The notes under the pieces: generated by a model
What the model was told of the DNA's origin: nothing
Databases searched by the model: none
The model's input: only the letters and a program-made list of their open reading frames with translations
DNA from: a virus
Taxonomy: Duplodnaviria; Caudoviricetes
IMG/VR virus record: IMGVR_UViG_3300028588_000786
Location: 1-29,651 of that record
Strand: one strand, 5' to 3'
DNA: 29,651 bases
In this document: in pieces, positions 838 through 29,651 of the stretch
How positions within the stretch are numbered: the first letter of the stretch is position 1
Layout: the number at the start of each line of letters is the position of its first letter
Position numbers and translations under genes: made by a program

Positions 838-1296
838 CTAATAGGTTGCTTTAAACCGGTGCTGATAGTACCATTCCATAATATAGGCGCCGTCTTGCCA
901 GGTAAGTTTGCCATCTGCGGCTACCTGGGCTTTTAAAACAGATAGGTTATGCAGGAAGGCACTCTTTAAATCGCCGGTTAAGCTTTGCAGGGTTTTAATG
1001 GCACAAGCGGTAATATCCTGAGGCGTAGCAGCGCCCGAGCAGCTGTCGGCGAGTTTTAACTGGATAAGCAATGTGGGAAGGGCTGCACGCAAAGCAACTT
1101 TAATTCTGTCGTCTGTTTCACCCGGAATAAGGGTGGTCAGGATATCGGCAACGGGGGATTCGACAAACGTTTTAATGTTTTCGGTTACTACCACGCCGGT
1201 ATGTATAGCGGTTTTTAATTCGGCCGGAATACGGTTAAACAGGCTTTGAATAGCTTTCCAGATCTTTCTGATCCAAACGGGAATTTTCATAATCAT
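838..1296 (-). CDS. Hypothetical protein, last gene of lysis cassette
   Basis: 152-aa ORF coupled to the holin by an ATGA overlap at 1293-1296; basic amphipathic N-terminus 'PVWIRKIWKAIQSLFNRI'. Confidence 0.75.
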   Translation of the reverse strand: MIMKIPVWIRKIWKAIQSLFNRIPAELKTAIHTGVVVTENIKTFVESPVADILTTLIPGETDDRIKVALRAALPTLLIQLKLADSCSGAATPQDITACAIKTLQSLTGDLKSAFLHNLSVLKAQVAADGKLTWQDGAYIMEWYYQHRFKATY

Positions 1297-1541
1297 TTTT
1301 TTATTTTAAGTTGACGATAGAATTTCACGGCCCATATTACCGCACGAACTACCCATGACAAAGCTGTAGCACAGCCCACCACGCAACCTGCGCAAGAAGA
1401 GATAGCGGCAACCAGTTTTAATGTTTCATCGGTAATAAGCAGCCCTTTTTGAGCGATAATGTAACTGCTCACGGCAGACAGCATGCCTACATGGGGCTTG
1501 TAGTTGAAATAGTGGTAGAGGTACTTAACGGAGTTTTGCAT
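1293..1541 (-). CDS. Putative holin
   Basis: 82 aa with hydrophobic segments and a basic C-terminus (KFYRQLKIKK); directly downstream of the endolysin. Confidence 0.6.
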   Translation of the reverse strand: MQNSVKYLYHYFNYKPHVGMLSAVSSYIIAQKGLLITDETLKLVAAISSCAGCVVGCATALSWVVRAVIWAVKFYRQLKIKK

Positions 1542-1996
1542 GGCGGGTCATATTGTTTGAGATTGTACTTGTTAATAATGCTGATGAGTTTTTGCGGGTA
1601 GGAGGGGTCGGTAGCGTAGCCGGCTTTTAAGAAGCAGCGGGCTTGTTCTTCGGGGGAAGTGCTTTTAAATACACCATGTGTAGTGTAGCGCTTGTTTACT
1701 TGCAAAAAGCGAACCCTATCGGCAAAGCCGGCAAGTAAAGATGGGTAATAACGGAATGCTTGTTTAAGTGTGATGGGTTTGTTGTTGACAAACTCCTGCG
1801 TTTGGTAGGTAACTGTTTGGCCTTTCCAGCCAGCGCTGGCTTTAATACCGAAGTAATTGTGATGCAAGGCAGATAATTTCGACTTACCATAATTGCTTTC
1901 GAGGCAGGCCTGTGCAATCATAAGTGAAGGAAATAGTTTTGTGCCCTGGCAGGCTTCAATAGCCGGAGGGGCAATTTGGGAGATGAAGGAGAGCAT
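1487..1996 (-). CDS. Endolysin, GH73 glucosaminidase (FlgJ-like)
   Basis: Motifs 'IAQACLESNYG', 'HNYFGIKA', 'FRYY', 'GYATDPSY..KLISII'; ATG at 1996 (MLSFISQIAP) is more likely than 2053. Confidence 0.9.
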   Translation of the reverse strand: MLSFISQIAPPAIEACQGTKLFPSLMIAQACLESNYGKSKLSALHHNYFGIKASAGWKGQTVTYQTQEFVNNKPITLKQAFRYYPSLLAGFADRVRFLQVNKRYTTHGVFKSTSPEEQARCFLKAGYATDPSYPQKLISIINKYNLKQYDPPCKTPLSTSTTISTTSPM

Positions 1997-2612
1997 GGAG
2001 GGTAATTTAGTGTTAGGTTGGGAATAGTAAGTCACGCACGCATTTGCGTGCATCCTTGCACTTAAAATTCAAATAATAGACAGTGGAGCAAATATTTTAT
2101 TATCTTCATCAACCTTATGCAGAATAAATATTTTGTATAATTAGATGGGCTAAGAGCTTTAGCAGTAACATTGTAATGTTTCCACACTGGACCGATAGTT
2201 TCAGTGGTTTACTGATGCGCGTTAGTAAGGAAACTGTTTAATTATATTTATATTAAGTTTAAACGGTATTTAATATCTTGCGGGAGTTTTAAGTTTGAAT
2301 ATAGCCTTTTGTATAAGCCGTCTTGCATTAATTGGCTTGGGGGTTGCATTCATCGTTAATTCGAAATTGATCGGATTCAAAAAAACTAAGATTTGGTTCC
2401 GAACGTGGCAAAGCTATCTAACCGCTAATGGGGCCAAGCAGTATGGTTCAACTTCACAAGCAGATTTAATTAGGGCTTGGACTATTAGAAAATCGTATTT
2501 GACGATTCTAATGAAAGCCTTTAAGAGTTGATAGTGGTGGCTGGTATCAAATCACCTTGGAAATTTAATAATTCAGTACTTTACTTCAAAAGTCTTCAAC
2601 ATATAAGAAAAG

Positions 2613-3620
2613 ATGTCAAGAAACAAGATTAACGCTTTGGAGTCTCTACGTGGCTTTGCAAGTGTTTACGTTGCAATAGGGCACTGGGTTTTATGGAATA
2701 AATCAAACCCAATACTTAAATTGTTCTTTAAATTTGGAACAGAGGCGGTGACGACTTTTTTTTTGTTATCTGGTTTTGTAATTTTCTACTCTACATTGAA
2801 GTCAAATGATATTAATTTGAAAGATTATTTCATTAGGCGTTTTAGGCGAATTTACTTCCCGTTTCTTTGTGCTGTCGTTATTTCCATCGCTATTTATCAG
2901 AGCATCGATATTTCTCTTTCCGAATTTTTGGGAAATCTTTTTATGCTTCAGGATCAGAGACGAACACCCGGTAATATCGTAAATCCATTTTTAGGCAACC
3001 AGCCATTATGGTCCTTGTCTTATGAGTGGATTTTTTACATTATATTCCCGTTTATTTTTAATGTGGTTAAAAATAAAGACAACCGGGTTCACTGGGTTAG
3101 CATTTTTAGCTTGCTTAGCCTTGTTATTTATCTTATTATCCCAAATCATATTTTGCTCGTCTTTGCATACTTTATCATATGGTGGACAGGCTTAGAGTTA
3201 GCAGAATACTTTTTTGGGGATAGAAAACAGAAGCGCTGCAAAACCCTTGTTATCTACTACATTGTTTTTATAACATTGCTTTCTGCAAATTGGCTGTTTT
3301 ACTACCATAGTAACAAAGTGCTTGATTTGGCATCTTACCCATTTTTACCTTTGCGTCAATTTATCTTTGCTTTGGTATGTTTATTAGCCGTTATCTACTC
3401 ATTCAAAGCAACGAAATTTATGGTAAACAAATTAGATATCTTTACCAAGGTTGCGCCTATCTCTTATAGCATTTATATTCTACATTTTCCTATATTAATA
3501 CAGCTTCATATACCAGTTCCCTTTTTTATCGAGATAACGTTCAAGTGTTTGTTGTTACTTGGAACCTCCTATTTAATTGAGGTTATATTGCAACCCAAGA
3601 TTAACAAATTGTTGAGGTGA
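2613..3620 (+). CDS. Acyltransferase family 3 (OafA/Oac-like O-acyltransferase), moron
   Basis: 'LESLRGFA..YVAIGH', 'FFLLSGF', 'RRFRRIY', 'WSLSYEWIFY', 'SYSIYILHFP'; polytopic; visibly AT-rich and opposite in strand to the cluster. Confidence 0.92.
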   Translation: MSRNKINALESLRGFASVYVAIGHWVLWNKSNPILKLFFKFGTEAVTTFFLLSGFVIFYSTLKSNDINLKDYFIRRFRRIYFPFLCAVVISIAIYQSIDISLSEFLGNLFMLQDQRRTPGNIVNPFLGNQPLWSLSYEWIFYIIFPFIFNVVKNKDNRVHWVSIFSLLSLVIYLIIPNHILLVFAYFIIWWTGLELAEYFFGDRKQKRCKTLVIYYIVFITLLSANWLFYYHSNKVLDLASYPFLPLRQFIFALVCLLAVIYSFKATKFMVNKLDIFTKVAPISYSIYILHFPILIQLHIPVPFFIEITFKCLLLLGTSYLIEVILQPKINKLLR

Positions 3621-3694
3621 TTTAGTGTTTATTTGGTAGCTGTGAATCATATGTAGATTAGAAAGAGGCCCGCTAATTTCTTAAATCTATGTAT

Positions 3695-3898
3695 TTAATT
3701 TAAAGTGCTATTGTTGGCCATTCGATAGCGAACAAGTCGAATCGACATGCCTCCTGGTGGTGCAATAAGCGAAATACTCTTAAACCCTGTTTGGGCCTCG
3801 ATGAATTGTCTACGACTCCCTTGTAAATTGATACCTCCAAATCCCATTTGTGCACGAAGCGGCTGGCTCTTTAAAGGCGTAAGACTAATACTAAACAT
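3695..3898 (-). CDS. Small hypothetical protein after spike gene
   Basis: 67 aa; ATG 6 nt after the stop of the 450-aa gene, same strand. Confidence 0.5.
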   Translation of the reverse strand: MFSISLTPLKSQPLRAQMGFGGINLQGSRRQFIEAQTGFKSISLIAPPGGMSIRLVRYRMANNSTLN

Positions 3899-3904: not shown

Positions 3905-5257
3905 TTAATTTAAGTAAAGGTTTGTTAGTGTAACTCTAAACTGAACCCAAACTACAGGAAAATTGAATGCATTTCCAACTTGATAGGATGCACTGCCATT
4001 GCCATAGTACTTATTTTCCCCGGGGTTAAAGTATAACTTTGGCTGCTGGTTTATTTCAAATTTGTAATACTCACCGGGGGCTCCATAATTACCGTTAGTC
4101 CAATCACTATTTTGTGCAGGCATTTCGTCACTGGTAGTCCAACGCATTTCAATAGACAACCTGTCGGGGTTGCCACCTCCGTTAGCGTTTGCGCCTGCGA
4201 ACACATTAGCATCGGGCACATTGTTATTAGTTGCTGGTGTAGCCGCATTCTTATTAAAGAGCAAAGCACCATTGTAAACCATTTGCATTATTTCAGTCGG
4301 GTTGGCAAAAGCCTTCCAAGGTGCTGATGATACATAACCACTGCTTTGGCCGTTCGTGATAATGGCATCCTGTCCACTTTGATCAATATTGACCCGCTCT
4401 GACAGTGAATTGTTAACTGACCATTCCGCACCTGTAGCAAATACACTGGTTACAGCATAGTTTGTGCCGCCAATATTTGTCAAACCATCACTCGCTTTAA
4501 GAAGATGAGGGCTATCGAATTGAAGTGTATAATCATATTTAGACGCATTATTAAACTTTGGAGCTTGATTAAAGCTATTTGCGTTGAAGGTAGGCTGCGC
4601 GGCTACTTGACTTGCTAAATCGGGATAAGCAGTACCGAGAATGGTTATAGGGCACATAATATTATTATAATCCATGTTTCCACCATTTACGTTTCGATAC
4701 CTTATTGATGATGAACTATTAAAATAACTGTTATTGCATCCTATTATGTAGGCAATACAATTAATAACTATGCAGTAATTTAAATTTATACCTGTACCAG
4801 CGTTCGCATTTTGGTTTGTAGTGATACTGCCAACATTGATAAACTTACAGTAATTGTAATTTAAGGTAGTACTACTACTAATAAACCATCCAACAGTTCC
4901 ACAACTTATAAATGTACAATTGTTGAATGCACTGGTCGATGTAGTATAAACCCCAAGATAGTTTTCAAAAGTTATATTGTTCATAATCACTCCAGAACTT
5001 CCTATTGTAAATAAATTAGTGCCGCTGCCTCTAAACTTCACCTCACCATCCGGTCGTATAGTTGTAGCAAACGACATTGTTTTTGAAATTGTCTCTTCAT
5101 ACATACCAGCACCAATAACTATGATTTGTCCTGCAGCTGTTACCAAGTTTAAAGCCGCATTAAATGTCGCCTTGGGAGTATCAGGTGTCAAACCATCGTT
5201 GGCATCATTACCCGCTTTGGAAACGTAAAAGTTGCCTGCTATTCTGAATCCGTTCAT
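3905..5257 (-). CDS. Putative tail spike / beta-helix (pectin-lyase-like) protein
   Basis: N-terminal 'YVSKAGNDANDGLTPDTPKATF' (DUF1565-like), then Asn/Cys-ladder repeats (FNNCTF, YNYCKF, LNYCIV, GCNNSY) typical of a parallel beta-helix. Confidence 0.7.
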   Translation of the reverse strand: MNGFRIAGNFYVSKAGNDANDGLTPDTPKATFNAALNLVTAAGQIIVIGAGMYEETISKTMSFATTIRPDGEVKFRGSGTNLFTIGSSGVIMNNITFENYLGVYTTSTSAFNNCTFISCGTVGWFISSSTTLNYNYCKFINVGSITTNQNANAGTGINLNYCIVINCIAYIIGCNNSYFNSSSSIRYRNVNGGNMDYNNIMCPITILGTAYPDLASQVAAQPTFNANSFNQAPKFNNASKYDYTLQFDSPHLLKASDGLTNIGGTNYAVTSVFATGAEWSVNNSLSERVNIDQSGQDAIITNGQSSGYVSSAPWKAFANPTEIMQMVYNGALLFNKNAATPATNNNVPDANVFAGANANGGGNPDRLSIEMRWTTSDEMPAQNSDWTNGNYGAPGEYYKFEINQQPKLYFNPGENKYYGNGSASYQVGNAFNFPVVWVQFRVTLTNLYLN

Positions 5258-5515
5258 ATTAAATTTGTTTATTATAATTCTTTTAAGCCCATAAACTCGT
5301 TACCGTAGGGCGGTTGTTCATAATTGTAGGTAACTACAAAATTGTAAGGTTATCACAAGGCAAATTATTGAGTAAATGTGTAGCCTTTACTACCGGTACA
5401 GTTTTTTAAGGTTCGGTTAATCTGTATCTGTACCACTAAAGATTGCACTTCCATGCTTTGTCCATATAGTTTTTCGCTATCTCACAGATGTCCGGAATGT
5501 ATTTGATAATACGTT

Positions 5516-6445
5516 TTAAACAAATTCTATAAATGCGGTGGCGTTTGTTGAATTTGCAGCAAAAGCTATGCGCCATCTTACCCATTTGCCCGCTGGTATA
5601 TTAATAAAGGTATCGGCGGCGAGCGGCAGCGTTGGCGTTAAATAACTTAGGCCATTATCTATACTATACTGGAAGGATGTTGCACCAAACAGCATCACAG
5701 ATTTGATTTTAGCAGCTGCCTTGAAGTATTCGGGACCAATACCATTGTAAGGAGCCACGAATATTAGATTATACTCTTTGTAAATTCCCGCCAATTTGTT
5801 TTTTTCAGCCGTGGTGTAGTCTTCGGTACTTAATACCTTAGTCCCATCTTTATCAACTTTTTTATTTAACTGTGCCTGTGCTTTGCCTAAGGCACCAACT
5901 ACAGTATCATTCTCACTGATCGTAGCTGTATTAGCGGTAGATAACCCCGAAAGCAATGCATTACGAACGAACAGGCTAATATTATCATAAAAGTATTTCA
6001 GCTTACTTAATATAGTTACCAGGTTATCGGTGTTCAGTAGCGAACCTTGAACTGAGGACAGCCCGCTAACCACTAATGTCATAACACTACTTAAAAAGTT
6101 ATCTAAGGTGTTTTTATAGCTGTTAGTAAAGTCATTCGTGCTTAATCCTTTGCCCGCTTCTTTTTGCACGTAATCGGTCAGGTTAACATCCGTTTGTAAC
6201 AACACCAAATTTGCATCGGCAATGCCATCCCTCCACCAGTACAAACTTACACTTGCACCATTGGCAATAACGCATTGCAAACCCTGAAAGCGTAAAGGAA
6301 GCTTAACCAAGTCCTTTGCTTCAGCCACATTAGCAAACGGTACTGTAGTACTGCCGTTGAATTTGCCATATCGCTTATCGGTGGATACGGGGTTAGTTAC
6401 ATCAAAAGGTTTTGCGAACTGGAAGCCCGCTAATTGTTCGGCCAT
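5516..6445 (-). CDS. Fibre protein with phage fibre repeat motif
   Basis: Two copies of a KVDK..GKGLSTNDYT..EKxKL-like motif (VQKEAGKGLSTNDFTNSYK; VDKDGTKVLSTEDYTTAEKNKL). Confidence 0.7.
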   Translation of the reverse strand: MAEQLAGFQFAKPFDVTNPVSTDKRYGKFNGSTTVPFANVAEAKDLVKLPLRFQGLQCVIANGASVSLYWWRDGIADANLVLLQTDVNLTDYVQKEAGKGLSTNDFTNSYKNTLDNFLSSVMTLVVSGLSSVQGSLLNTDNLVTILSKLKYFYDNISLFVRNALLSGLSTANTATISENDTVVGALGKAQAQLNKKVDKDGTKVLSTEDYTTAEKNKLAGIYKEYNLIFVAPYNGIGPEYFKAAAKIKSVMLFGATSFQYSIDNGLSYLTPTLPLAADTFINIPAGKWVRWRIAFAANSTNATAFIEFV

Positions 6446-6448
6446 AGT

Positions 6449-8035
6449 TTATATCGTTAATTCGTGGGTGTGTGGATCGCCATAAGGCACGGCTTGTTCG
6501 TACAGGTAAACATCGTAGCTTACGTCGCCGGTTCCACCATTTTTGAGGTTAAGGGTTTGTTTGCCGGCCAGGTAAATAGACTTGACGTCGCCATTGGTTT
6601 GCACATCTTTAGCAACCATTAGCGATCGGCCAATGCCGTTACGTACAGCTACAAAAAAGCGTTTATGCGTAGTGCCGGTGTTTAGGGTTATGGGTATGCT
6701 GCCGTTTTCCCAAATAAAATTTACTGAGCCACCACCCGATAGGCCTCTTAATGAGTCGCTGCTAAGTGCCACGCCATCAGGAAGGGTTCCGTAAAGGATT
6801 TTATATCTTGGAGTAATGCTTCGTGTTGCTGGTACCGTACCAGCTGCGAATTGATTACGGCTATCTGGCTCACCTGCATCATTGTTTCTGATAGGAGCTG
6901 CTTTATAACTGTAGGTAGATGTAAATGTTATAATCTCGGCGGTAGTAGTATAGTTCAATAAATCCGTAGGGTCTGTAGTGCCAATTTGCATAGCTGCGGC
7001 ATTGCCCACTTTATTAGTTACAACCAGCGGACTAATATCAGCTAATCCACCAGCATGATTATTTGTGTACAACGGATCAACTCTAAAATCAATTACCTGC
7101 CCAACCTCAATCAAATCAATATTTTGCCCTGCCTGTGTAGCGGTTACTTTGGCGGTTACATCTTGTGTTGCAACCGGTTTGTTGTAAACCGGTGGATTGA
7201 CATTTTGATAGGCTTCTTTGTATTGCTCAAAAGCACTGTTAGCGGCGGGCACCGTCATCCCATTGCTGTATTTACCGAAAGGTACGTTGCCGAAAACTTT
7301 GAAGGTAGGAGCGGCGGTGTTTAAGAAAATCTCATTTATAGCTGCTACAACTGTGCTTTTATTAACAGTGCTAAGGCTACTAAGGTTACCCAGTTCGGCA
7401 ATATCCTGGGTCATGTATTTACCAGTACCCCAATTACCATCAGCCTTCGGACCAAATATCATCCAGGTGTTAGTATTAATATAGAAGTCGCCGTTGGTAC
7501 CCACCATTTGGTTCGATGGATTTATAGTGCCACTTAAAACCGTTTTGCCGTTTGTGCCAGGTGCGCCGGTATCACCTTTAGGGCCGGGGCCACCTGCCGG
7601 ACCATCCAGCATCGAAAACTCCATTTCCCAGCCACCAGTTTTTTTTTGGTAGAATATACCATTAGCCGTGTTGATGTAAGTATCGTTAATTTGGCCGCTC
7701 GCAGTATCGGGTTCGCCCAAACCATAGGTAATACTATTGCCTGTTGGTGCGTTTGGTGGAAGTGTGAACACCTGCAACCAGCCGCCATTCCGTTTTTGAT
7801 AGAACGCACCGCTAAGGGTATTAATGGCTACGTCCAAGTCTTTATATTCGGTGTTTTGGGGGATGGTGGTAACAAAAAAGATTTGATTGCCGGAGGCGGT
7901 GGTAGCAGCTAGATAATCACGCAGCTTGTTGAAACTGAACTGGTAATCGGTTTGGTTACGTACCAGTACGCCCACATCATCGCCCGTAATAGAAGAAGGG
8001 GCAACAGGTAATTCGCTTATTTTTTTATCGGGCAT
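6449..8035 (-). CDS. Fibre protein with collagen-like segment
   Basis: 'MPDKKISELP' N-terminus; three 'D.YINT..G..Y.K..G.W'-type repeats; Gly-X-Y run GPKGDTGAPGTNG; 'LGNLSSLSTVNKSTVVAAINEI' fibre motif. Confidence 0.75.
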   Translation of the reverse strand: MPDKKISELPVAPSSITGDDVGVLVRNQTDYQFSFNKLRDYLAATTASGNQIFFVTTIPQNTEYKDLDVAINTLSGAFYQKRNGGWLQVFTLPPNAPTGNSITYGLGEPDTASGQINDTYINTANGIFYQKKTGGWEMEFSMLDGPAGGPGPKGDTGAPGTNGKTVLSGTINPSNQMVGTNGDFYINTNTWMIFGPKADGNWGTGKYMTQDIAELGNLSSLSTVNKSTVVAAINEIFLNTAAPTFKVFGNVPFGKYSNGMTVPAANSAFEQYKEAYQNVNPPVYNKPVATQDVTAKVTATQAGQNIDLIEVGQVIDFRVDPLYTNNHAGGLADISPLVVTNKVGNAAAMQIGTTDPTDLLNYTTTAEIITFTSTYSYKAAPIRNNDAGEPDSRNQFAAGTVPATRSITPRYKILYGTLPDGVALSSDSLRGLSGGGSVNFIWENGSIPITLNTGTTHKRFFVAVRNGIGRSLMVAKDVQTNGDVKSIYLAGKQTLNLKNGGTGDVSYDVYLYEQAVPYGDPHTHELTI

Positions 8036-8038: not shown

Positions 8039-8659
8039 TTAATACAGGGTATCTAAGGGTAAAAAGTTGTCTATTTCGGCAACACCGGTAGTGTCATTAA
8101 AATCGGTACGGTCAATGCCGCGGATGCGTGGACCGGCCTGACGAGCGCTTTTGTTACGTTCGTTGTAACGCCATAACGGGTAGTCGGCTTGATTATCCTG
8201 CAAAAATTTCTCCACCTCGTTGGCATGGGCATTGGCTACGCTGCGTTGTTGCTGTACCAGTTTCAAAATGTCGGGCGTGCTTACGGCTTGAGCGTTATCG
8301 TAATGCTTGATTACTGGTCCGGTAGCGGTAAAGTGCACGCCATTGCTTTCAATAAAGCGGGCAAAGGTGAAGTATACCAAGGTAGAGGCAAGGCCTTCGT
8401 AGGTTACAGTATAGCCCGAGCGGTCTGTATACTCGCAACCATTGAACAGCTTTTTGTAAACCTGCGGCGCATCGGTTTTCATTTGCCCGGCATCGTCGAA
8501 GTATTTTAAGAGCTGGTAATACAAAGGGTAGCCTAAAAACGGTTTCAGGTCCAGTTCCTGTGCTTTTTTGATGAACACCTGCAGGCGCTCGGGCTTTATA
8601 TTGGTGGAGATGTCTTCAAATTGCTGAAAGACGGTTGGGGAGATCAGTATGGGGTTCAT
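8039..8659 (-). CDS. Putative head-tail adaptor (DUF6712-like)
   Basis: Directly after portal; 'FIKKAQELDLKPFLGYPLY' pattern; ATG at 8659 preferred because the 7 codons to 8680 lie in a heptamer repeat. Confidence 0.55.
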   Translation of the reverse strand: MNPILISPTVFQQFEDISTNIKPERLQVFIKKAQELDLKPFLGYPLYYQLLKYFDDAGQMKTDAPQVYKKLFNGCEYTDRSGYTVTYEGLASTLVYFTFARFIESNGVHFTATGPVIKHYDNAQAVSTPDILKLVQQQRSVANAHANEVEKFLQDNQADYPLWRYNERNKSARQAGPRIRGIDRTDFNDTTGVAEIDNFLPLDTLY

Positions 8660-8729
8660 AGTCAATAGTTCTTGGTTCATGGGATAGATGTAGGTTGAGT
8701 GGAGTTCACAATGATCTAAAAGCCATTAA

Positions 8730-20528: not shown

Positions 20529-20547
20529 GTTTATGGTTACGGGTTTT

Positions 20548-20720: not shown

Positions 20721-20728
20721 ACCGCCCC

Positions 20729-22906
20729 TTACTGCGTTTGGATATTCAAGCCCGGCAGGTTAAAGGTAATGCTGAAGGGGGCCTGGCCGTTGCGGGTTTC
20801 GTACTCGGCAAAGGTGGCGGTGTTGAGCACTACGGTTTGCCATTTTACAGGATTGTTGCTCACCAGCATTTGTACTTTGGGTGAGTATTTGATGGATTGC
20901 AGCCCCTTAATATCTGCTACCGAAAGATCTTCGGCCATAACTTTCATTTTAACGCCGGCGCTTTTGCTAATTACGTCTTCCATGGCATCCTGGTTGGCCC
21001 AATCAAGAATGTGATTTTTAACGATCACGGCGTTCTGTACGTCGAGCGTGACTTCCTGGTTATGTACAAAGCGATAATAGTTCCACGAGCCTGTGAGGCC
21101 TATCCAGCGCAGGTAAACAGACTGGTCGTTGCCGGCACTATCTACCCGTATGGTTTGTGTTTGGGTAATAGTGCGTATGGTATTCCCGGAATCGGCATAT
21201 TTAAGTTCAAGGTTGAAGTAATGTACGCGGCTGCTAAAGGCGGTATTAATACGAAGGCGGTTCTGGCCAATGTGCCGGGCGATGCTTTGGGTAATGGGCT
21301 GGTTAGTAATCGGCTGCCGGAAGATCACCAGTTTGCTATTATCCTGGTTGAGCAAAAATGAGTTGTCTTCGTTAAGCAGGTAGGTTGTTTCCACGCTATC
21401 GGGTAAAGGGCGGCGGTTAATATCCAGCGGAGTAATTTCGCAATATACATTCAGGCCGGCCAGGTCTTCGCTATAAATAAATCCAACATCAAACGGGTAG
21501 CCTGCGCTGTAGGCTGGTTCGGCAAAGTCGGTAACCCAACGGGCGCGCTTACTGGCACCGTCCACAGTTTTGAAAGGCACAAAGGCCGCCATGTTGCCGC
21601 CATGCTCATCGCCCAACTGGCGGGCAGCATACAGCACGTAATAGGGTTTAGGTATGTTGATGTAAATAGGTGCGGTGTCGTTCCCATCGGTATTTTGCCA
21701 AACTTCGGCATAACTGATGGTGTAGCTGGCGCTCAGGTTGTCGTCGCGGAAGTTTACCTGGGTGTTGTCGCTATCATCTTTTGCCCTGAGCAGGCTTTGT
21801 AAAAAGCTGGAGATATCGGCTTTAATGATTCCGCTGTTGTTAGGCCTGTGGGTAGCCTTAATGGTTTGCTGCTGCCCCGTAAGCTTATCCTGGTAAGTAA
21901 TTTGGGTGCTTATATAGTAGTAAGGTCGTAGCTTATTAATGTTAATAAAACCTCCGTTTGCCTGGCCCGCTATGTAAGGTGCGTCAATAGTAATAGCACT
22001 GCTATTTAGGCTGACACTTATAATTTTAAAAACGCCATTGTACACTCCGGCATTAATGTACACCAGGTCATCTGTAGCTACGGTAGCTATGCCGTTGCTC
22101 AATGCGCCGTTAATTACAAATGTTGCCTTTTGCCCGGCACCGGCATCAATGTTAGAAACACCAAAATCGCGCCGTTGGTAAGTAAAAACTACTGGGTTGA
22201 ATGCAGCGCTCCAACGGCCAATGTTGCCGCTGCCCAGGTCGACTGTTGGGTCGGCCACAAGTAAGCCTGATACCGTGGGTAAAGTAAATGTTTGATTTGC
22301 CGGGCAGCCGCTTGCGTCTCTGATATAAGCTGTATAGCCTCCACCGCTTAAGTTGGTAAAGGTGGGCGACAGTTGGTAGGCACCCTCATTAAGTTTGTAT
22401 TCAATTGGCCCCGAACTGGCTGTTGCATGAACAGTTACCTGCCCATCTTTACTGCCGGTATTGCTCTCCTTTTTGTCGATAGTAATATTGCTAATGGCAG
22501 CATCACAAATGCCCGGTGGTACGTAAGTGCCGTTGTTTTCAATAACATTGCCAACCAGGCGAACATCAAAAGTGTAAGTGCCATCAGCGGTAGATTCATA
22601 AATCAATCTATCTTCATAAAGGGTTTGAGTAAGGCCTATCAAGGTTGCTGTTAGTACTTGGCCAGGTTCGCCATTTTCATATTCCTGGTAATCTACAGTA
22701 TCATAAGTCCCGATTGCTCTGGCACCTGTTTCATCGGTTAATTCAATATATATTTTGGCAAACCTGCGGTAGCCCGATGCTGTTGACCGGTTTAAATCGT
22801 CAATACTGTTTATGAAATTGCTTTCACTAAATGTAGTTGGCAAATTAGGCTCAACGGTTGGTTTTTCTGTCCGGTAACGGTATTTTATTTCAGCATATTT
22901 AGCCAT
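20729..22906 (-). CDS. Minor/distal tail protein containing an SprB-like repeat
   Basis: C-terminal 'VYLRWIGLTGSWNYYRF...LQSIKYSPKVQM'; internal 'DGQVTVHAT..SGPIEYKLN...FTNLSGGGYTAYIRDASGC'. Confidence 0.68.
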   Translation of the reverse strand: MAKYAEIKYRYRTEKPTVEPNLPTTFSESNFINSIDDLNRSTASGYRRFAKIYIELTDETGARAIGTYDTVDYQEYENGEPGQVLTATLIGLTQTLYEDRLIYESTADGTYTFDVRLVGNVIENNGTYVPPGICDAAISNITIDKKESNTGSKDGQVTVHATASSGPIEYKLNEGAYQLSPTFTNLSGGGYTAYIRDASGCPANQTFTLPTVSGLLVADPTVDLGSGNIGRWSAAFNPVVFTYQRRDFGVSNIDAGAGQKATFVINGALSNGIATVATDDLVYINAGVYNGVFKIISVSLNSSAITIDAPYIAGQANGGFININKLRPYYYISTQITYQDKLTGQQQTIKATHRPNNSGIIKADISSFLQSLLRAKDDSDNTQVNFRDDNLSASYTISYAEVWQNTDGNDTAPIYINIPKPYYVLYAARQLGDEHGGNMAAFVPFKTVDGASKRARWVTDFAEPAYSAGYPFDVGFIYSEDLAGLNVYCEITPLDINRRPLPDSVETTYLLNEDNSFLLNQDNSKLVIFRQPITNQPITQSIARHIGQNRLRINTAFSSRVHYFNLELKYADSGNTIRTITQTQTIRVDSAGNDQSVYLRWIGLTGSWNYYRFVHNQEVTLDVQNAVIVKNHILDWANQDAMEDVISKSAGVKMKVMAEDLSVADIKGLQSIKYSPKVQMLVSNNPVKWQTVVLNTATFAEYETRNGQAPFSITFNLPGLNIQTQ

Positions 22907-22942: not shown

Positions 22943-23395
22943 TTAATTATAGTTTTCGAACCCCATGTTTTGCAGTGTAATTGTTAAGCCAACACCAGTT
23001 GTGTTCACATCATACTTGTTGTAAACCGGCAAGCATTTGGCTTTGCTGCCTGCAGTTATTTTGAAGATCCGTGCGGGTTCAGCAGCCGTATAACGCGAGG
23101 CTTTTACCAGGAACTCGTTGGCTAAATACAGGGCCTTGCTAACGTGAGTTTCGTTATTGGCAGTGTATTGATCAAAGTTGGTTTTAAATAAAAATTCGAG
23201 ATAAACTGTGAAGGTGTTATGGACCGATCCATTGATAGCCGGCAGTAATTCTATGGCTTGCAGTGGATACATAAATACACACGGAAAAGCTTCATCATCT
23301 GCCAATAGATTTAATTCATTAGCTGTACCGTAAATGAATCCGGGTGTGCCCGATAGTTTTTGAGTGATGTTATAAATGTGATTGCGGATAGGCAT
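22943..23395 (-). CDS. Putative tail completion/terminator protein
   Basis: 150 aa in the tail block with 'FPCVF' motif; assignment rests mainly on size and position. Confidence 0.45.
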   Translation of the reverse strand: MPIRNHIYNITQKLSGTPGFIYGTANELNLLADDEAFPCVFMYPLQAIELLPAINGSVHNTFTVYLEFLFKTNFDQYTANNETHVSKALYLANEFLVKASRYTAAEPARIFKITAGSKAKCLPVYNKYDVNTTGVGLTITLQNMGFENYN

Positions 23396-23614: not shown

Positions 23615-23881
23615 TTATTTTTGCGCCTGTAATAATTCGGCATAACGCTTTTGAAAAGCCGACTCCGTTTTGTTTAGCAGTAACTTGGTGAGCACCCTAT
23701 TGTATGGTAAGTTTAGAATAATCTGCCATTTGGTTACATCGCCTCCGGCCAATGCGTTCACCGTATTAATGTACCTAAACGGTTCAAAATCTTTAATGCC
23801 CGCCCGCTGTTCCAACGCTGAAACAGGCGATGCCAGAAGCCGGTTTTCGGCTTCAATAAGTTTGGATAGTTCAAAAAAAAA
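23615..23881 (-). CDS. -1 frameshift extension of tail assembly chaperone (gpGT-like)
   Basis: The -1 frame is open from 23902 (after TGA at 23903-23905) through the T9 run at 23873-23881 to the stop at 23615; no ATG start. Confidence 0.7.
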   Translation of the reverse strand, partial: FFFELSKLIEAENRLLASPVSALEQRAGIKDFEPFRYINTVNALAGGDVTKWQIILNLPYNRVLTKLLLNKTESAFQKRYAELLQAQK

Positions 23882-24459
23882 TAGCGTGCAATAGGCAATA
23901 CGTCAGTAACCGGCAAGCGTTCTACCTCACTTGTAAATTCAGCAGCTAACTCTTCATCGTACGGCTTTTCGGTTACCTTGCTATAAAAATAATGTGCCAA
24001 AACCTGGCTACAGGTTTGCAATGAAGGGTTAAAATTTTGCTGCCAGTTTTCGTCGCCATGTAAGGCAATATGCTTGCTGATCTCCTCGGCAATAATATCT
24101 CTCGAAGCCATAAAAGCACCAGCCGGTTCAACCGATAAATTTTTCATCACTTTTACTTTTTGAAGCTTTCCGTCAATTGCAAATATTACGGTTTGAGGGA
24201 TAGCTTCACTGTTGTAAAGTTCTTTAATTTCATGAGCCAGCATCAATACCTGTTGGTTAAAAACCTGCAGCTCGCTAAAGCTTTTTACCTGCTGCAATTC
24301 CTGCAACGGCACCCCCGAAAGTATTTGAATAGCCTGCAGATCGTCCAGCTTTTCGGCCGCCTGCATGGCCATTAATTGTCCCAGTTGAAGCTCGTGCAAA
24401 GTGGTGGGAATGCTAACGTTTAATTTACCGGTTAAGGTTTGAAGTGTTTTTTGAATCAT
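23758..24459 (-). CDS. Tail assembly chaperone (gpG-like)
   Basis: 233 aa; contains TAT TTT TTT TTG (YFFL) slippery site near the 3' end, overlapped by a -1 frame ORF. Confidence 0.65.
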   Translation of the reverse strand: MIQKTLQTLTGKLNVSIPTTLHELQLGQLMAMQAAEKLDDLQAIQILSGVPLQELQQVKSFSELQVFNQQVLMLAHEIKELYNSEAIPQTVIFAIDGKLQKVKVMKNLSVEPAGAFMASRDIIAEEISKHIALHGDENWQQNFNPSLQTCSQVLAHYFYSKVTEKPYDEELAAEFTSEVERLPVTDVLPIARYFFLNYPNLLKPKTGFWHRLFQRWNSGRALKILNRLGTLIR

Positions 24460-24846: not shown

Positions 24847-26055
24847 CTACATCATCCCCATTCCCTCATCGCCCCAAACCGCTTGAGGTTTCCAGGGCAG
24901 GCGCGAACGGGTTTGGCCGGTGCTGCTTATCTGCAGTTTGTTGAGGGCCACGTAGCGCAGTGGATCTATGAGGTGGTTCCAACTGTCGGTAGGTACGTTG
25001 AGCGGATTGCCCGATGGATCTACCTTCCATTGGTAGCGGTCGAGCTCTTTGCGCAAATTGGTGCTGCGGCGTGTTACGTTAATGCGGTAGCGGCGTAAAA
25101 TGTCTATCGATAGTTTAATGCTGTCGTTTCCTTTCCTGGCCGGTACTATGTTCCAGCCCAGTCGCCGCAGTTCTTCTATCGATTTAGGTTCGGCACTGTC
25201 GGCCACCATTTCGGTGTTCTTGCTCATACCCATGGCTGCCATGCGCATGTGGAGGTCGGTGTTGGTGAGCTGGGTTTCGTACAGTAGCTCGTTCACCCAT
25301 AGTTCACCGTTTTGCAAGTAGACCTCTAGCAGGCCTGTTTCATCATTACTGAAGCCAAAATCGAGCCCGTAGGCAATGCGTTTGGCTTGATGCGGGATTT
25401 CTTCGCACAGTAACCAGTTGCTGAGCACCACGCCCCTTATTTTGCCGGTTAAGCCACGGGCGTATACCTTCCATTGCTCTTCGTCCTCATGACGTACCTT
25501 CTCTATTTTTTCGCGAATGGCATCCTCCAAAAAAGGGTTATGCCGGTGGTCGGAGATCAGCAGTTGTACACCCTCGTGGCCTATCAGTTTGTCGTGCACC
25601 CAAAATGATGCGTTGGGGTTATAGTCTATAAAAATTCGCTTGCGGGTACGTAAGGCCAGTTCCGTGTAAATGGCATAGGTAATACCGTTGGCTTCGTTCA
25701 CAAAAAGGTAATCGCGCTTACCGCTTTTGGCATCCTGGGCATCGTCGTAACTTTTAAATTCGAGCAAAGATCCGTTATGAAACTCATAAATGCGGTCCGA
25801 CTTGTTAAACGACCTGATCATGCTTTGCAATGCTACCGAACTGCTTACAATGCTTTGTGCATCGCGCATGGCCCCTGCTTTAAGGTTGGGTATATCCTGA
25901 CTTACCACCGTAATTACCACTTTAGGCTGCTGGCAAGCCAGTGTAAACAGCACCTGCTCTATAGCATAGGTTTTTCCCGAACTGGTGCCGCCCTGGTTAA
26001 CCACCACCTGCGCTGTAGCATTGTAATTGTGTTTAAAGAGTACAGAGGTTTGCAT
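24847..26055 (-). CDS. terL: Terminase large subunit, PBSX/SPP1-like
   Basis: Walker A 'QGGTSSGKT', Walker B 'YLFVNEA', 'DYNP', nuclease 'GLDFGFSND', 'ADSAEPKSI', 'NHLIDPLRY'. Confidence 0.95.
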   Translation of the reverse strand: MQTSVLFKHNYNATAQVVVNQGGTSSGKTYAIEQVLFTLACQQPKVVITVVSQDIPNLKAGAMRDAQSIVSSSVALQSMIRSFNKSDRIYEFHNGSLLEFKSYDDAQDAKSGKRDYLFVNEANGITYAIYTELALRTRKRIFIDYNPNASFWVHDKLIGHEGVQLLISDHRHNPFLEDAIREKIEKVRHEDEEQWKVYARGLTGKIRGVVLSNWLLCEEIPHQAKRIAYGLDFGFSNDETGLLEVYLQNGELWVNELLYETQLTNTDLHMRMAAMGMSKNTEMVADSAEPKSIEELRRLGWNIVPARKGNDSIKLSIDILRRYRINVTRRSTNLRKELDRYQWKVDPSGNPLNVPTDSWNHLIDPLRYVALNKLQISSTGQTRSRLPWKPQAVWGDEGMGMM

Positions 26056-26063
26056 GTTCTTCG

Positions 26064-26169: not shown

Positions 26170-26664
26170 TTAAAGAGCCACTTCCTGTTCACAGGTGGCG
26201 GGGGTGGGTCCTGTTTCCAGGATTTCTATTTTGATGCTTACATCGCTTGCAGGTGCCTCACCGGTTGGTTTTTCCAGCCAGCCTAAACTTTTTAGGGCAA
26301 AGATGGCCCCGGTAGCGGGTTGCTGGTGCAGCATTTTTTCGTATTCGGTTTCAATTTGCAGCCGGGCACGTTTGAGTATAGAAGCGAAGCGGCCGTTTTT
26401 TTCGTAAGCTTCAAAGGCTTGTAAGCTATCGAAGCCCAGGTGCAGGGCCATGCCGCTTAATGTAGGTGGCTGCGGCTCACGGTCCCAAATTTTTTGATCA
26501 CGCATTTCGGGCGGACTTTTAGCCGTAGGTTTAAAGGGGAGGCATTCGGTATGATGCTCGCCTTCTATCCACTTAAAGTAGTTGGCTATGCAATGGTTGA
26601 TGTGTTCAACCTTGGTAAATAAAGTGTACTTGTTCTTCATTATGATAAGAGTGCCGGTTGGCAT
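26170..26664 (-). CDS. terS: Terminase small subunit, P22 gp3-like
   Basis: 'PPTLSGMALHLGF...RARLQIETEYE...TGAIFALKSLGW'; directly upstream of terL; start at 26664 or 26640 more plausible than 26718. Confidence 0.85.
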   Translation of the reverse strand: MPTGTLIIMKNKYTLFTKVEHINHCIANYFKWIEGEHHTECLPFKPTAKSPPEMRDQKIWDREPQPPTLSGMALHLGFDSLQAFEAYEKNGRFASILKRARLQIETEYEKMLHQQPATGAIFALKSLGWLEKPTGEAPASDVSIKIEILETGPTPATCEQEVAL

Positions 26665-26805
26665 AAGGAGAATGTAAAAGTAGGCAAAATAATTGAGAAA
26701 TGCAAATATTATTAGCAATTTGTTTAAAGGGTTTTTGCTGGTTTACTGAAAATAGTGATAGTCATATTATCTATTTAATTATCAATTCCGCATCTTTGCA
26801 GCACT

Positions 26806-27141
26806 ATGAGACCCGGAGATAAAGTAATTTGCATTAACGATAAAATAGACGCCGATAAAGCCGAAGAAATACGCCGCGACTTTGAAATCTGGATTACTAA
26901 AGATCAGGAGTATACCCTTCGCGAGATCCTTGATAATAACGGTATTGTAACCGGTGTTTTATTGGAAGAGGTTCATAACTTCCCTAAGTTTTTCAACCTT
27001 ATTAACCGCTACCAGGAACCGGCCTTTGCTATCTGGCGTTTCCGTAAGCTGAACTACGCCACCGCGCAGCAAGCTGAGGAGCATACCGAAGAACTCGTTG
27101 AAGTAGGCCGCCCCGCTAAAGAAGAGGAAGGCCAGTTTTAA
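26806..27141 (+). CDS. Hypothetical protein (host-like)
   Basis: 111 aa, 'MRPGDKVICIND'; CATCTTTG -7-like promoter motif at 26791-26798 just upstream. Confidence 0.8.
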   Translation: MRPGDKVICINDKIDADKAEEIRRDFEIWITKDQEYTLREILDNNGIVTGVLLEEVHNFPKFFNLINRYQEPAFAIWRFRKLNYATAQQAEEHTEELVEVGRPAKEEEGQF

Positions 27142-27312: not shown

Positions 27313-27372
27313 AGGATTAATTTAGCACTGTAACATAAACCAACAAATAACTTTTCCTCACAGACCACAGAC

Positions 27373-27894
27373 ATGATCATTCGCCAAGCTACTTTACAAG
27401 ATATAAACCCTATAATGCAACTCATTGCAGAGGTATTGCCTATAATGCAGGCTACCGGCAATTTGCAGTGGGATGATACCTATCCTAATGCAGCAGTTTA
27501 TACCAGCGATGTAGAGGCAGGGCAACTTTGGGTTGCCGATGTGGACGGTATGGTGGCCGGTGTTATAGCAGTTATTGTGAATGAGCAGGAGCCTGAATAC
27601 GCGCAGGTGCAGGGTTGGGATATCACCGAACCTTGTATAGTGGCGCACCGTTTAGCGGTTAGTCCGCATATGCAGGGGAAGGGCATTGCCGCCCAGCTGT
27701 TGAAACAATGCGAGGTGGTAGCCATAGAAAACAGCATCAACTTAGTGCGGTTAGATACCAATACAGTTAACCGGCCAATGCAAAACCTTTTCCTGAAACT
27801 GGGTTATAACCTGGGTGGTGAAATTACCTTGAACAAACGTCCCGGCCTAACCTTCATGGCTTTCGAAAAACGGCTGGATCTCCAAAACGCTTAA
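27373..27894 (+). CDS. GNAT family N-acetyltransferase
   Basis: 'HRLAVSPHMQGKGIA' acetyl-CoA motif A; 'RLDTNTVNRPMQNLFLKLGY'. Confidence 0.93.
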   Translation: MIIRQATLQDINPIMQLIAEVLPIMQATGNLQWDDTYPNAAVYTSDVEAGQLWVADVDGMVAGVIAVIVNEQEPEYAQVQGWDITEPCIVAHRLAVSPHMQGKGIAAQLLKQCEVVAIENSINLVRLDTNTVNRPMQNLFLKLGYNLGGEITLNKRPGLTFMAFEKRLDLQNA

Positions 27895-27984: not shown

Positions 27985-28404
27985 CTAAAAGCTGAGATCG
28001 TAAGCATAGGTCTCGTTTTCAATCAGCTGGGTTAAAATAGATTTTAGTAACGCCTCCCTAACCCATTGCTGCTCGGCAGGGGTGGCGTCGTTATTATACC
28101 AATTTAAAGGAGCACTAATAGTGATGCGGGTGGTGTACAGATATTTCTTTTTAGGGTGCATGCGCGTGCCTTCATAACTGTTCAGGTTTTCGGCTTTAAT
28201 GAGTTTGGTTAAATGGCTTACCGGTATGTTGAGTTGCAGGCATTCGTCCAGAGTGTTTTTGTAGTCTTGCTTATCCTCCAGCCACAGTGTGAGCGTTTGT
28301 CCGTTCAGTTCATGGTCGGCAATGGCAATGCGGCTGTAGGTGTAATCAACCGATATAATCAGCCACCACAATTCGTTACGGGTTTTTTGGTTCATTTTTA
28401 TCAT
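27985..28404 (-). CDS. Hypothetical protein, second gene of repressor-divergent unit
   Basis: 139-aa ORF with natural composition ('ELWWLIISVDYTYSRI', 'WLEDKQDYKNTLDECLQ'). Confidence 0.75.
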   Translation of the reverse strand: MIKMNQKTRNELWWLIISVDYTYSRIAIADHELNGQTLTLWLEDKQDYKNTLDECLQLNIPVSHLTKLIKAENLNSYEGTRMHPKKKYLYTTRITISAPLNWYNNDATPAEQQWVREALLKSILTQLIENETYAYDLSF

Positions 28405-28565: not shown

Positions 28566-28754
28566 TTATTTAAAAGCAGGCTGCCAGCCGGGCAAGTATT
28601 GCTGAATGGCTGCTATTTCCTGCTCATATTTTTGGCAGGCTGCTTTATATCCGCGGTAGCGCAACTTTACCCTGCGGCTGGCTGGTACATTTAAGTTGGC
28701 AGTAGCCCGGGTGTTGCCATCAGTGTTTTGGAGAGCAGAGTATACGAGGCGCAT
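28566..28754 (-). CDS. Small hypothetical protein in cro position
   Basis: 62 aa, first gene divergent from the repressor; 'YKAACQKYEQEIAAIQQYLPGWQPAF'. Confidence 0.65.
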   Translation of the reverse strand: MRLVYSALQNTDGNTRATANLNVPASRRVKLRYRGYKAACQKYEQEIAAIQQYLPGWQPAFK

Positions 28755-28898
28755 GGTATGAGATGTAGTGTTGTAATTATAGGTTCTTGTAAATGGTTGT
28801 TATAAGATAGACTCGTGATAATTGATGTTTATCTTTATTTAAATACATACAAATTTGTAAAATTCAATTTTTTTGTATTTCTTTGAGTTATTACAGAA

Positions 28899-28930
28899 CA
28901 AATATAAAGAAATTTCTGTATTATTGTCAA
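28899..28930 (-). promoter_or_regulatory. Bacteroidota sigma70 leftward promoter overlapped by TACAGAA-N15-TTCTGTA inverted repeat
   Basis: Minus-strand TATATTTG (perfect TAnnTTTG) at 28899-28906 and TTG at 28928-28930, 21 nt apart; inverted repeat arms at 28892-28898 and 28914-28920. Confidence 0.65.
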
Positions 28931-28937
28931 GAAAAAG

Positions 28938-28946
28938 TTATCCACA
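28938..28946 (+). promoter_or_regulatory. Consensus DnaA box TTATCCACA
   Basis: Exact 9-mer ending 12 nt before the repressor ATG; function unproven. Confidence 0.35.
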
Positions 28947-28958
28947 AAATTAAAATCT

Positions 28959-29651
28959 ATGGAAAGTATTAATAAGGTTGGCAAAATAAAGACTATAAGA
29001 CCCGAAACATTAGAGTTTATAATTATATATAACCAATTGAAGGGTAAAGCTTTTAGCGGTAATGCAGAACTGGCCGAAGCATTAGGTTTTAATTCGCCAA
29101 GTTCCATTACAGAAATAATAAAGAGCCGCCAAAATATTGATACAGAAAAACTGCGTATTTTTAAAGAAAAATATCAGTCTTTTCTTAATGGTACTGCTGC
29201 TTTACCTGCGCCGGCTGCACCCAAGCCATATTTAGGCATCCCTATGTATGAGGTAATTGCCACTGCTTCGGGAGTGGAGGTGTATAATGATATTAACGAT
29301 ACGCAGCCCGTGGGTCACATGTATTTCCCTGGAATTGAGGACTGCGATTTTGCCTTACCTGTTTGGGGGCACTCTATGTACCCTTATCTTGAAAACGGTT
29401 GCTGGGTAGCGTTGAAAGTTATTCATGATAAAAAGATATTACCGGGTGAGGTGTATTATATAGAATGGGGCGATTACCGCATGTACAAGCGCTTATTGTC
29501 CACCGAAAAGGATGACGAAGTAATTGCGCATTCCGATAATGTTACTGAAATGATTGCCGGCCGTTTAAAGTATTCACCTTTTGTGATCAAAAAATCGGAA
29601 ATTAAAAAGCTTTGCCTGGTGAAGGATATCCACAAAAAGCACAACCATTAA
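28959..29651 (+). CDS. CI/LexA-like repressor (HTH plus S24 peptidase)
   Basis: HTH 'NAELAEALGFNSPSSITEII'; Pro/Ala linker; catalytic Ser in 'VWGHSMYP' and Lys in 'MYKRL'. Confidence 0.9.
   Translation: MESINKVGKIKTIRPETLEFIIIYNQLKGKAFSGNAELAEALGFNSPSSITEIIKSRQNIDTEKLRIFKEKYQSFLNGTAALPAPAAPKPYLGIPMYEVIATASGVEVYNDINDTQPVGHMYFPGIEDCDFALPVWGHSMYPYLENGCWVALKVIHDKKILPGEVYYIEWGDYRMYKRLLSTEKDDEVIAHSDNVTEMIAGRLKYSPFVIKKSEIKKLCLVKDIHKKHNH

Follow-up and report, generated by a model that had tools for sequence, protein, structure and literature searches.

Few lineages have given rise to the known gene transfer agents (GTAs), and what makes a cell retain a particle system that lyses it has yet to be settled. 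In the available text of PMC11841831, GTAs (RcGTA, CcGTA, BaGTA and VSH-1) are clusters of head, tail and packaging genes which are inherited vertically, co-diverge with their hosts under purifying selection, are devoid of replication genes and are often annotated as prophages. PBSX and the PBSX-like elements of Bacillus, according to the accessible parts of PMC8347963 and PMC12946183, consist of one contiguous cluster of 28-33 kb with a divergent repressor, a short early block, a headful-type terminase and head, tail and lysis genes; their design is damage-inducible, they are conserved in their host group, most variable in the fibre region and tRNA-adjacent in B. pumilus. The first of these two sources also describes, for PBSX-like phages, a contractile tail with a sheath (XkdK) and a sigma-like late activator (Xpf). 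FpGTA of Faecalibacterium (accessible part of PMC12946183) is a near-ubiquitous genus-level operon outside Alphaproteobacteria, podovirus-like, experimentally shown to package host DNA, and its function in transfer or in killing is still open. We report here on a locus of the genus Mucilaginibacter contained in the virus record IMGVR_UViG_3300028588_000786 (Duplodnaviria; Caudoviricetes), the full 29,651 bases of which are hereafter called the window; the window being the complete record, its flanks were therefore read in relatives.

With the GTAs this locus shares every trait given above, with the PBSX-like elements the size and layout of the cluster with a putatively headful-type terminase, the predicted damage-inducible design, the conservation, the variable fibres and the tRNA neighbourhood, and with FpGTA the near-ubiquity in one genus and the open choice between transfer and killing. 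It differs from PBSX by its Bacteroidota siphovirus-like ancestry, a ClpP-type protease, a LexA/CI-type self-cleaving repressor, a polymorphic tape measure accompanied by a membrane cassette, recurrent site-fixed deletions in terL and the lack of a match to a sheath (XkdK) or to the sigma-like Xpf. It differs from the GTAs in that a phage-type repressor and lysis genes of its own belong to the locus, in that packaging may begin at a particular site, a feature denied to GTAs in the available text of PMC11841831, and by a capsid capacity perhaps larger than the 4-14 kb of known GTAs; beyond the general HK97 fold, no link in sequence to them emerged. Unlike FpGTA, it is long-tailed and known from genes alone. 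Its gene order departs from that of RcGTA and follows that of Bacteroidota prophages; its capsid protein is 10-11% identical to the RcGTA capsid, which is one of many similar Foldseek matches and no better than other HK97 folds. Temperate prophages of the same family (in genomes G425, G266 and G034, and as a second copy in G150) share its order (terminase, chaperones, tip, tape measure, protease, capsid, tube, portal, adaptor, fibres, lysis), but are patchy and lie at other sites.

We consider it probable that the locus is a host-owned, likely damage-inducible and non-excising particle system, PBSX- or GTA-like, which would package chromosomal DNA in place and lyse the producing cell. Its genes suggest an independently evolved GTA/PBSX-like system for which a GTA function is plausible. 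It is real, genus-wide, domesticated and apparently undescribed: no description of it was found in the literature on prophages, phage-like particles and GTAs of Mucilaginibacter or on GTAs of Bacteroidota, of which few subscription papers were covered, and the proviral sequences that PMC12074574 reports from Mucilaginibacter genomes (Table S6, as far as its accessible text goes) may list it as a prophage.

A capsid search of the species-genome collection returned 107 stretches. Eighty of them were retained, with identities of 76-98% and, in almost every case, the name Mucilaginibacter; these are the 80 loci counted below. TerL matched 194 of the 229 genomes (G133 included) in the genus of G001 (M. 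terrae), almost always once, 162 of them at an expectation value (E) <1e-100, and internal stops were absent from the 150 matches listed. The repressor is also single, in 50 of 50 capsid-positive genomes. Among 301 genomes sampled across the family, the portal gave 33 matches: 25 at 71-96% identity, all in Mucilaginibacter, two more in this genus at 34-40%, and six outside it at 28-39%. The close form is confined to Mucilaginibacter among the genomes searched, narrower than the family-wide distribution, Pedobacter included, that an initial annotation of the window had envisaged. The chromosomal position is fixed, as this annotation had supposed: in 55 of the 80 loci the first 10 kb downstream of the capsid gene contain a tRNA-Leu, as do extended regions of three more, the other 22 being short or unextended regions (two of them second, divergent copies). 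Past the lysis end the order is tRNA-Leu(GAG), tRNA-Leu(CAG), a BNR gene and tRNA-Lys, and in G001 nothing other than housekeeping genes was seen in 35 kb of flank next to the lysis genes and 31 kb next to the repressor. The repressor occurs together with a 139-aa gene in 41 of 41 fetched loci, on a side interleaved with host-type genes (GNAT acetyltransferase, RNA-binding protein, RES-Xre pair) and subject to local inversions. Several intergenic stretches of the window match REP-like repeats dispersed over the G001 chromosome, which we count in favour of the reading preferred here.

The constraint on the genes was estimated as the ratio of nonsynonymous to synonymous divergence (dN/dS; Nei-Gojobori, 35 intact genomes, pairs with host dS<0.6, saturated-dS pairs dropped, 25-71 pairs per gene). 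Median values are 0.031-0.088 for ten genes and 0.17 for TerS, compared with about 0.02 for rpoBC, and 0.03-0.19 for the tip, the fibre N-terminus and a 152-aa gene in chosen close pairs, one pair of the 725-aa tip gene being near identical; portal, capsid and TerL are constrained as strongly as the tail genes. The tree of six genes of the element shares 26 of 32 splits with the rpoBC tree, for a mean of 0.21 and a maximum of 3 in 10,000 label shuffles. The Walker A and B motifs and the three nuclease aspartates of TerL are invariant in 40 of 40 intact copies. Being single copy in most species, at a fixed site, co-divergent with its host, and showing low dN/dS and intact catalytic motifs, the locus is inherited vertically at one tRNA-Leu site under purifying selection, a conclusion that is well supported and bears out two further suppositions of the initial annotation. 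Host-fixed, vertically inherited genes of phage origin, purifying selection and no replication or integration/excision genes of its own are three genomic traits by which GTAs are recognised, and these are found here. The functional definition of a GTA further asks for particles that take up host DNA from the whole genome with no bias towards their own genes, for packaged DNA too short to encode the particle, and for delivery of DNA that recombines in recipients.

Family searches of the 37 open reading frames (ORFs) of the window, together with a structure model for the capsid, recovered the near-complete siphovirus-like set of head, tail, packaging and lysis genes and the S24 repressor where the initial annotation had placed them. 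Together with their strands, they are as follows; the tape measure and the variable tail genes are listed further below.

28959..29651, + strand: CI-like repressor, helix-turn-helix and S24 self-cleaving domain (PF00717)
28566..28754, - strand: 62-aa early ORF, divergent from and adjoining the repressor (family in 31 clustered loci)
27985..28404, - strand: 139-aa conserved early ORF (present in 42 of 42 repressor loci; dN/dS 0.047; 62% homologue beside the repressor of the G034 initiator-bearing prophage)
27373..27894, + strand: host-type GNAT acetyltransferase accompanying the repressor block (PF00583; 28 loci)
26806..27141, + strand: 111-aa host-type ORF (family in 21 loci)
26170..26718, - strand: TerS, P22 gp3-like (PF16677, GP3_package, E 2.7e-9; phrog_606; dN/dS 0.17)
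24847..26055, - strand: TerL, PBSX/SPP1-like (Terminase_3; PBSX-family model TIGR01547 at E 1.5e-22, below its cut-off)
23615..24459, - strand: tail assembly chaperone pair, overlapping ORFs with a predicted -1 frameshift at a slippery T run
22943..23395, - strand: 150-aa virion gene, putative tail completion by position (median 66% in relatives; homologues in related prophages)
18513..22906, - strand: two large genes of putative tail-tip role, 725 and 671 aa (phrog_33698)
13826..14083, - strand: conserved ORF of 85 aa preceding the head operon (median 72% over 68 of 80 loci; dN/dS 0.049)
12230..13525, - strand: ClpP-type head maturation protease-scaffold (NF045542 above cut-off; phrog_94)
10905..12116, - strand: major capsid protein of the HK97 fold, its insertion domain rich in beta structure (structure model; dN/dS 0.034)
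10124..10714, - strand: probable tail tube (phrog_21217; nearest named Atlas cluster TP901-1 tail tube, 0.86, a lead only)
8730..10013, - strand: portal (phrog_11226, E 3e-77; best matches of 76 loci without a stop)
8039..8680, - strand: DUF6712 protein, probable head-tail adaptor (PF20459; 75 of 80 loci)
838..2053, - strand: lysis cassette with glucosaminidase endolysin (PF01832), 82-aa holin-like ORF and conserved 152-aa ORF (the last in 37 of 80 loci)
1..822, no single strand assigned: host genes, a 108-aa ORF and a cupin, that separate the lysis end from the two tRNA-Leu genes (in G001 some 90 bases further out than position 1)

In the repressor, the ATASG, GHSMYP and RMYKRL motifs, which hold the S24 serine, lysine and cleavage motif, are essentially invariant in 42 of 42 sequences. 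The gap between repressor and terS, announced as about 2.3 kb, measures 2.24 kb and contains, as described before, two short ORFs on the same strand (62 and 139 aa) plus, on the other, two host-type genes (GNAT and 111 aa). The 62-aa ORF would be Cro-like by its position. The 139-aa protein has no match in Pfam, PHROG or Atlas; its 580 homologues, where named, belong to Mucilaginibacter or Bacteroidetes, and it is a candidate late-gene activator, while the 85-aa ORF, helix-turn-helix-like by eye, may be a regulator. A sigma-70 promoter scan remained near chance (13 found for 8.8 expected) with a model ill-suited to Bacteroidota. Intergenic short-unit and inverted repeats were also seen at 10014-10123, 10715-10904, 14084-14276, 20529-20728, 26056-26169, 27142-27372 and 28469-28532.

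The description of TerS as P22 gp3-like is upheld by its family match; for TerL the PBSX/SPP1-like label holds to the extent of a PBSX-family score under the cut-off, and RefSeq calls its relatives PBSX family terminases. The capsid gene matched no named family in the family searches. A structure model from a 111-sequence alignment (predicted local distance difference test score, pLDDT, 89) retrieved HK97-fold capsids with Foldseek, best 5WK1 (TW1 capsid) at E 7.8e-10; it replaced an earlier model from a shallow alignment of 20 sequences (pLDDT 41) for which the fold search was uninformative. Against GenBank phages the capsid gave no match and the portal only matches of at most 31% identity. 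The run of T in the FF codons of the chaperone pair is identical in the five of five sequences recovered by motif, and the best matches of the two tip genes lack internal stops in 45 and 60 loci. The names of tube, adaptor, tip and chaperones are weakly supported, by position and weak leads. The tail looks non-contractile, no sheath match being found among the 37 ORFs, which gave no sigma-factor match either.

No integrase, helicase, primase, SSB, recombinase or initiator was found among the ORFs of the window, in agreement with what had been noted before. Helicase, primase, recombinase and linked integrase were equally absent from 69 flanking ORFs in 100 kb of G001, from 76 common families and, one initiator-like ORF of G189 apart, from 150 of the 171 rare ORFs in the neighbourhood of the repressor, in a search that covered linked genes; the repressor-side matches were a host-type SSB, a DnaE-type polymerase and ClpP. 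Tyrosine integrases occur in three of 20 lysis-side regions (L139, L140, L143), beyond the BNR gene and tRNA-Lys, and were set aside as unrelated insertions. A duplicated tRNA 3' end of at least 16 bases was sought at the far side in G001 and in the window and not found, nothing being longer than 12 bases. Linked mobility genes or attachment sites, patchiness and neutral decay, the signs at sequence level that the initial annotation had named in advance as contrary to its proposal, were not encountered, with the exception of the G189 ORF.

From these genes, the following course can be proposed. Because the S24 residues are intact, DNA damage would lead to RecA-dependent cleavage of the repressor and to induction; a few cells would then build tailed HK97-type particles, and, because the locus cannot excise or amplify, these would be filled by a headful mechanism with chromosomal DNA in place before the cell lyses. 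As to its origin, a temperate phage of the same family may have integrated at tRNA-Leu early in the genus and then lost its integrase and early block. The prophages of G425 and G266, with the same unusual gene order at 25-56% identity, suggest what was lost: in both, Sak4, helicase, initiator and HNH genes precede terS and an integrase follows immediately on the lysis genes; G425 has in addition a helicase loader and a resolvase. The G034 prophage has a repressor 51% identical, a 139-aa gene 62% identical and an initiator, no integrase being found in it. Besides its resident copy, G150 holds a second cluster of at least 37 kb with a capsid 76% and a portal 72% identical, a different terminase and an integrase after lysis; such close head genes imply that head genes have been exchanged with live phages, as may still happen, and that the capsid may hold more than the 4-14 kb of known GTAs. 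Within this integrase-bearing prophage lies a tRNA-Met (L437-L438, contig C126 of G150). A profile link between the capsid and the G425-type capsid family was too weak to be retained (E 8e-4, probability 24%).

Several points weigh against this reading, and some of them lean away from a GTA packaging DNA at random. The fixed breakpoint in terL suggests a cut anchored in the locus, the 76% identical capsid of an integrase-bearing prophage means that the head may be phage-like in size, and the variability of the tail and surface module agrees as well with a killer of the PBSX type. The G150 prophage falls among the resident copies, on a long branch of an unfinished quick tree, and two splits of the element tree with support of at least 0.99 conflict with the host tree. 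In G189, one of 41 repressor loci, the initiator-like ORF stands directly after the 139-aa gene (L096:15682-16428) and is 27% identical (E 1e-26) to the initiator of the G034 prophage. The TerL match is only partial in 32 of the 194 positive genomes and absent from 35 of 229, some of the assemblies being incomplete; in six further genomes the repressor lies 21-65 kb away or on the lysis side, three of them having it on the lysis side and the other three at 21-41 kb from terL; and the tape measure of the window itself carries a nonsense codon. Transcripts in the RNA run X6 come from contigs of relatives only, at depth 2-5 over parts of several genes in one metatranscriptome with no DNA or silent control, and are left unused as evidence of expression; runs with a small share of the locus were likewise set aside for statements on habitat. 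Particles and packaged DNA are predicted from the gene content, and transfer is one possible function. Gene transfer, killing and locus-anchored packaging overlap within the preferred reading of a host-owned particle system, and the last two are considered below as alternatives in their own right.

The first alternative, possible without being favoured, is that the selected function is killing: the locus would be a headed bacteriocin of the PBSX type, aimed at non-kin by its variable fibres and tape measure, with the O-acyltransferase and the membrane cassette as self-immunity and any packaged DNA as ballast. It draws on the following module.

14277..16814, - strand: tape measure protein, broken by TAA (phrog_3336; 826 aa and unbroken in G001)
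16853..18288, - strand: variable cassette upstream of the tape measure, encoding proteins that are membrane-anchored or exported (about 29% pairwise identity)
3905..8035, - strand: hypervariable fibre or receptor-binding module of 528, 309 and 450 aa (weak tail-fibre PHROGs)
2613..3620, + strand: O-acyltransferase, predicted surface modifier (PF01757)

Around a conserved head, the fibres of relatives carry lectin- or esterase-type domains (LamG, GDSL, SASA) or collagen domains, the endolysin is swapped between four alternating families (glucosaminidase, lysozyme, GH108 and CHAP), and acyltransferases, FkbM methyltransferases or glycosyltransferases that may modify the surface lie beside the fibres; the O-acyltransferase family has 16 members at the same position in 36 clustered loci. 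The first 675 residues of the tape measure, including its middle, are 7-25% identical between species, compared with 80-87% for the C-terminus, and the upstream array of membrane proteins comprises 0-7 genes per locus, with N-terminal tape-measure fragments, orphaned, in 13 of 54 cassettes. Similarity of the tape measure and of the upstream genes co-varies weakly (partial r 0.20, permutation p 0.0005), which would agree with killing; the statistic is corrected for shared ancestry by capsid distance only and is not phylogenetically independent. The PBSX-like regions are likewise most variable in the fibre region and kill related strains, in the available text of PMC8347963. Nevertheless, the tail looks non-contractile, unlike that of PBSX, and tailocins of the non-contractile kind need no head; yet the constraint on portal, capsid and TerL equals that on the tail genes, which speaks against killing as the selected function. 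The variable module shows an ongoing change of target specificity, as expected under kin delivery or non-kin killing alike.

The break in the tape measure of the window had been overlooked in the initial annotation. An in-frame TAA at 14568-14570 stands where relatives have GAA and G001 a Glu codon; it is also found, with zero differences, in the contig of the likely source run, while the contigs of relatives read GAA. Because it removes the conserved last 97 residues of the protein, the window copy is probably tail-defective. Three further observations concern this region. The divergent membrane proteins interleaved with N-terminal tape-measure fragments (window 16853-18288; L088:11849-15756) resemble orphan immunity arrays. 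In L011, L013 and L157 the tape measure gene has been relocated ahead of the chaperone genes. L080 (G087) seems to contain an inversion, broken at about residue 580 of the 725-aa tip gene and at about residue 93 of the capsid; it is located close to where a circular record ends and may be a display or assembly effect.

A second alternative, somewhat unlikely, regards the locus as a non-excising lateral transducer that would package from a pac-like site inside terL, one-way through the cluster towards the tRNA side, the deletions now described being repaired scars of aborted packaging. In 21 of the 32 genomes with a weak TerL, terL stops at codon 96 (plus or minus one base), about position 25768 of the window (hot-spot loci L231-L266, L275, L343-L386), and G186 has a second copy with the same deletion. 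The stump is joined to capsid codon 88 (six genomes), to the last 14 tape-measure codons (five), to three sites in the holin-like gene (seven), to a fibre gene (two) or to the 152-aa gene (one). With IMG/VR and JGI contigs added there are 40 distinct junction sequences, two of which are unrelated terminases, leaving 38; the pattern used for this collection scan misses right partners starting with T. In these 38 the left breakpoint keeps its place after codon 96, give or take one base, although no bases are conserved where the cut falls, and the deletion always extends downstream. The matching site in an intact relative reads CA|G for 24 of the junctions, CA|A for seven and is one base off for three. 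Seven of eight distinct right-hand sites are in-frame glutamine codons for 36% expected (hand count, p 0.004, post hoc), and beyond CA|R neither a common recombination motif nor homology between left and right was recognised by eye, no formal motif test being made.

An artefact of a database or pipeline was rejected as the cause of these deletions, since truncated proteins are found in RefSeq and junctions in both IMG/VR and JGI contigs, and so was a single inherited deletion, the carriers being scattered over the host tree and differing at synonymous sites like intact genes. One RefSeq cluster contains an intact 419-aa and a truncated 114-aa TerL, both named M. gossypii. The remnants are undecayed, without stops in 21 TerL stumps and six orphaned capsid fragments and with nonsynonymous differences (pN) at or within the intact range; this, together with the scattered carriers, argues that the deletions are recent and independent. 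Other breakpoints exist at TerL 32-36, 141-154 and 228-240 and within terS, mostly without CA|R. Since L010 lost the DNA from tube to holin and G227 appears to keep most of terL, loss of terL is the rule and not absolute. A possible second left hot spot was seen at terL codon 32 in two genomes, with right ends other than CA (L419 of G056, L434 of G207).

The fixed left end is what favours the lateral transducer, and for SPP1 the accessible text of PMC6316719 has the position of the terminase cut set by the geometry of the complex with a non-specific nuclease. Ku is present in five of five genomes tested, and TerS retains its P22 gp3-like domain. A terminase cut followed by end joining fits this left end but not the reused right ends: headful ends are imprecise in the same source, whereas here, from one species to another, the right ends fall on the same few CA|R sites. 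Moreover, SPP1 pac overlaps terS and not terL, and the junction of a reciprocal excision circle (capsid 87 to terL 97) had no match in viral contigs with the one pattern tried. As RelE-type toxins cut mRNA between codon positions 2 and 3, CAG included (available text of PMC7180214), and RtcB is present in four of five genomes, an RNA-templated route through a RelE-type CA|R cut might be imagined, which is speculation. Base-precise recurrent deletions between non-homologous sites point in any case to an unexplained mechanism of DNA rearrangement.

For the host-owned particle system, the same deletions bear on the question of who benefits. The system is costly, and deletions that remove the terminase recur in terminal lineages yet seem of recent date, as would be expected if the population gains from the system and the producing cell does not. 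The boldest version, which we hold to be unlikely as a whole, would make it the first genus-wide GTA-like system of Bacteroidota, independently domesticated from a local siphovirus lineage and packaging the chromosome from a fixed site inside its own terL, with a site-specific process that joins terL codon 96 to downstream CA|R glutamine-codon points and repeatedly yields non-producing cheater lineages. Cultured species that carry the locus are numerous, in a genus common in soil and in association with plants; one named species offers natural isogenic-like pairs in which the terminase is intact or truncated, and sister prophages show what was lost, so that the prevalence, cost and benefit of a lytic particle system are directly testable in Mucilaginibacter.

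It is quite unlikely that the locus is kept instead for defence or as a donor of parts, through immunity from the repressor, exclusion proteins or interference of its capsid with related phages. The repressor does survive in most genomes without TerL (24 of 35 with a match; in several the site persists with larger deletions), and related temperate phages carry the same repressor family and head genes, to which the membrane cassette may be added; this explanation nevertheless leaves without a cause the joint strong constraint on the TerL motifs, portal, tail tip and lysis genes.

It is highly unlikely that the locus is a prophage which is still mobile, depends on a helper or was grounded only recently, and which spreads in the genus. 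The close head homologues in an integrase-bearing prophage, the initiator-like gene of G189 and a synonymous divergence of the locus about three times that of rpoBC would agree with it, but rpoBC is expected to have a low dS, which weakens the last argument, and the single copy at one site, the congruence of the trees, a lysis end without the integrase that sister prophages have there and the missing tRNA 3' duplication are opposed to it. Neutral decay of a dead prophage, suggested by the nonsense codon of the window copy and the frequent deletions, is barely credible and is refuted at the genus level by dN/dS of 0.03-0.17 across species with near-saturated synonymous sites and by invariant catalytic sites, although single broken copies, that of the window among them, may be decaying in this way.

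Some minor observations concern the surroundings and additional copies of the locus. Defence-like inserts stand between terS and the repressor, namely an AAA_21 ATPase with DUF4276 in G001 (L089:4108-5854) and, in one clade, a RES-Xre toxin-antitoxin pair (L098-L101, L106, L108). The divergent copy of G156 (L401-L403), a genome with no repressor match, is split into blocks about 120 kb apart, and G150 (contig C118, L440) has a second repressor block, 50% identical, on the far side of the cluster of tRNA-Leu, BNR gene and tRNA-Lys. Viral catalogues currently count the locus many times over as separate proviruses (148 stretches).

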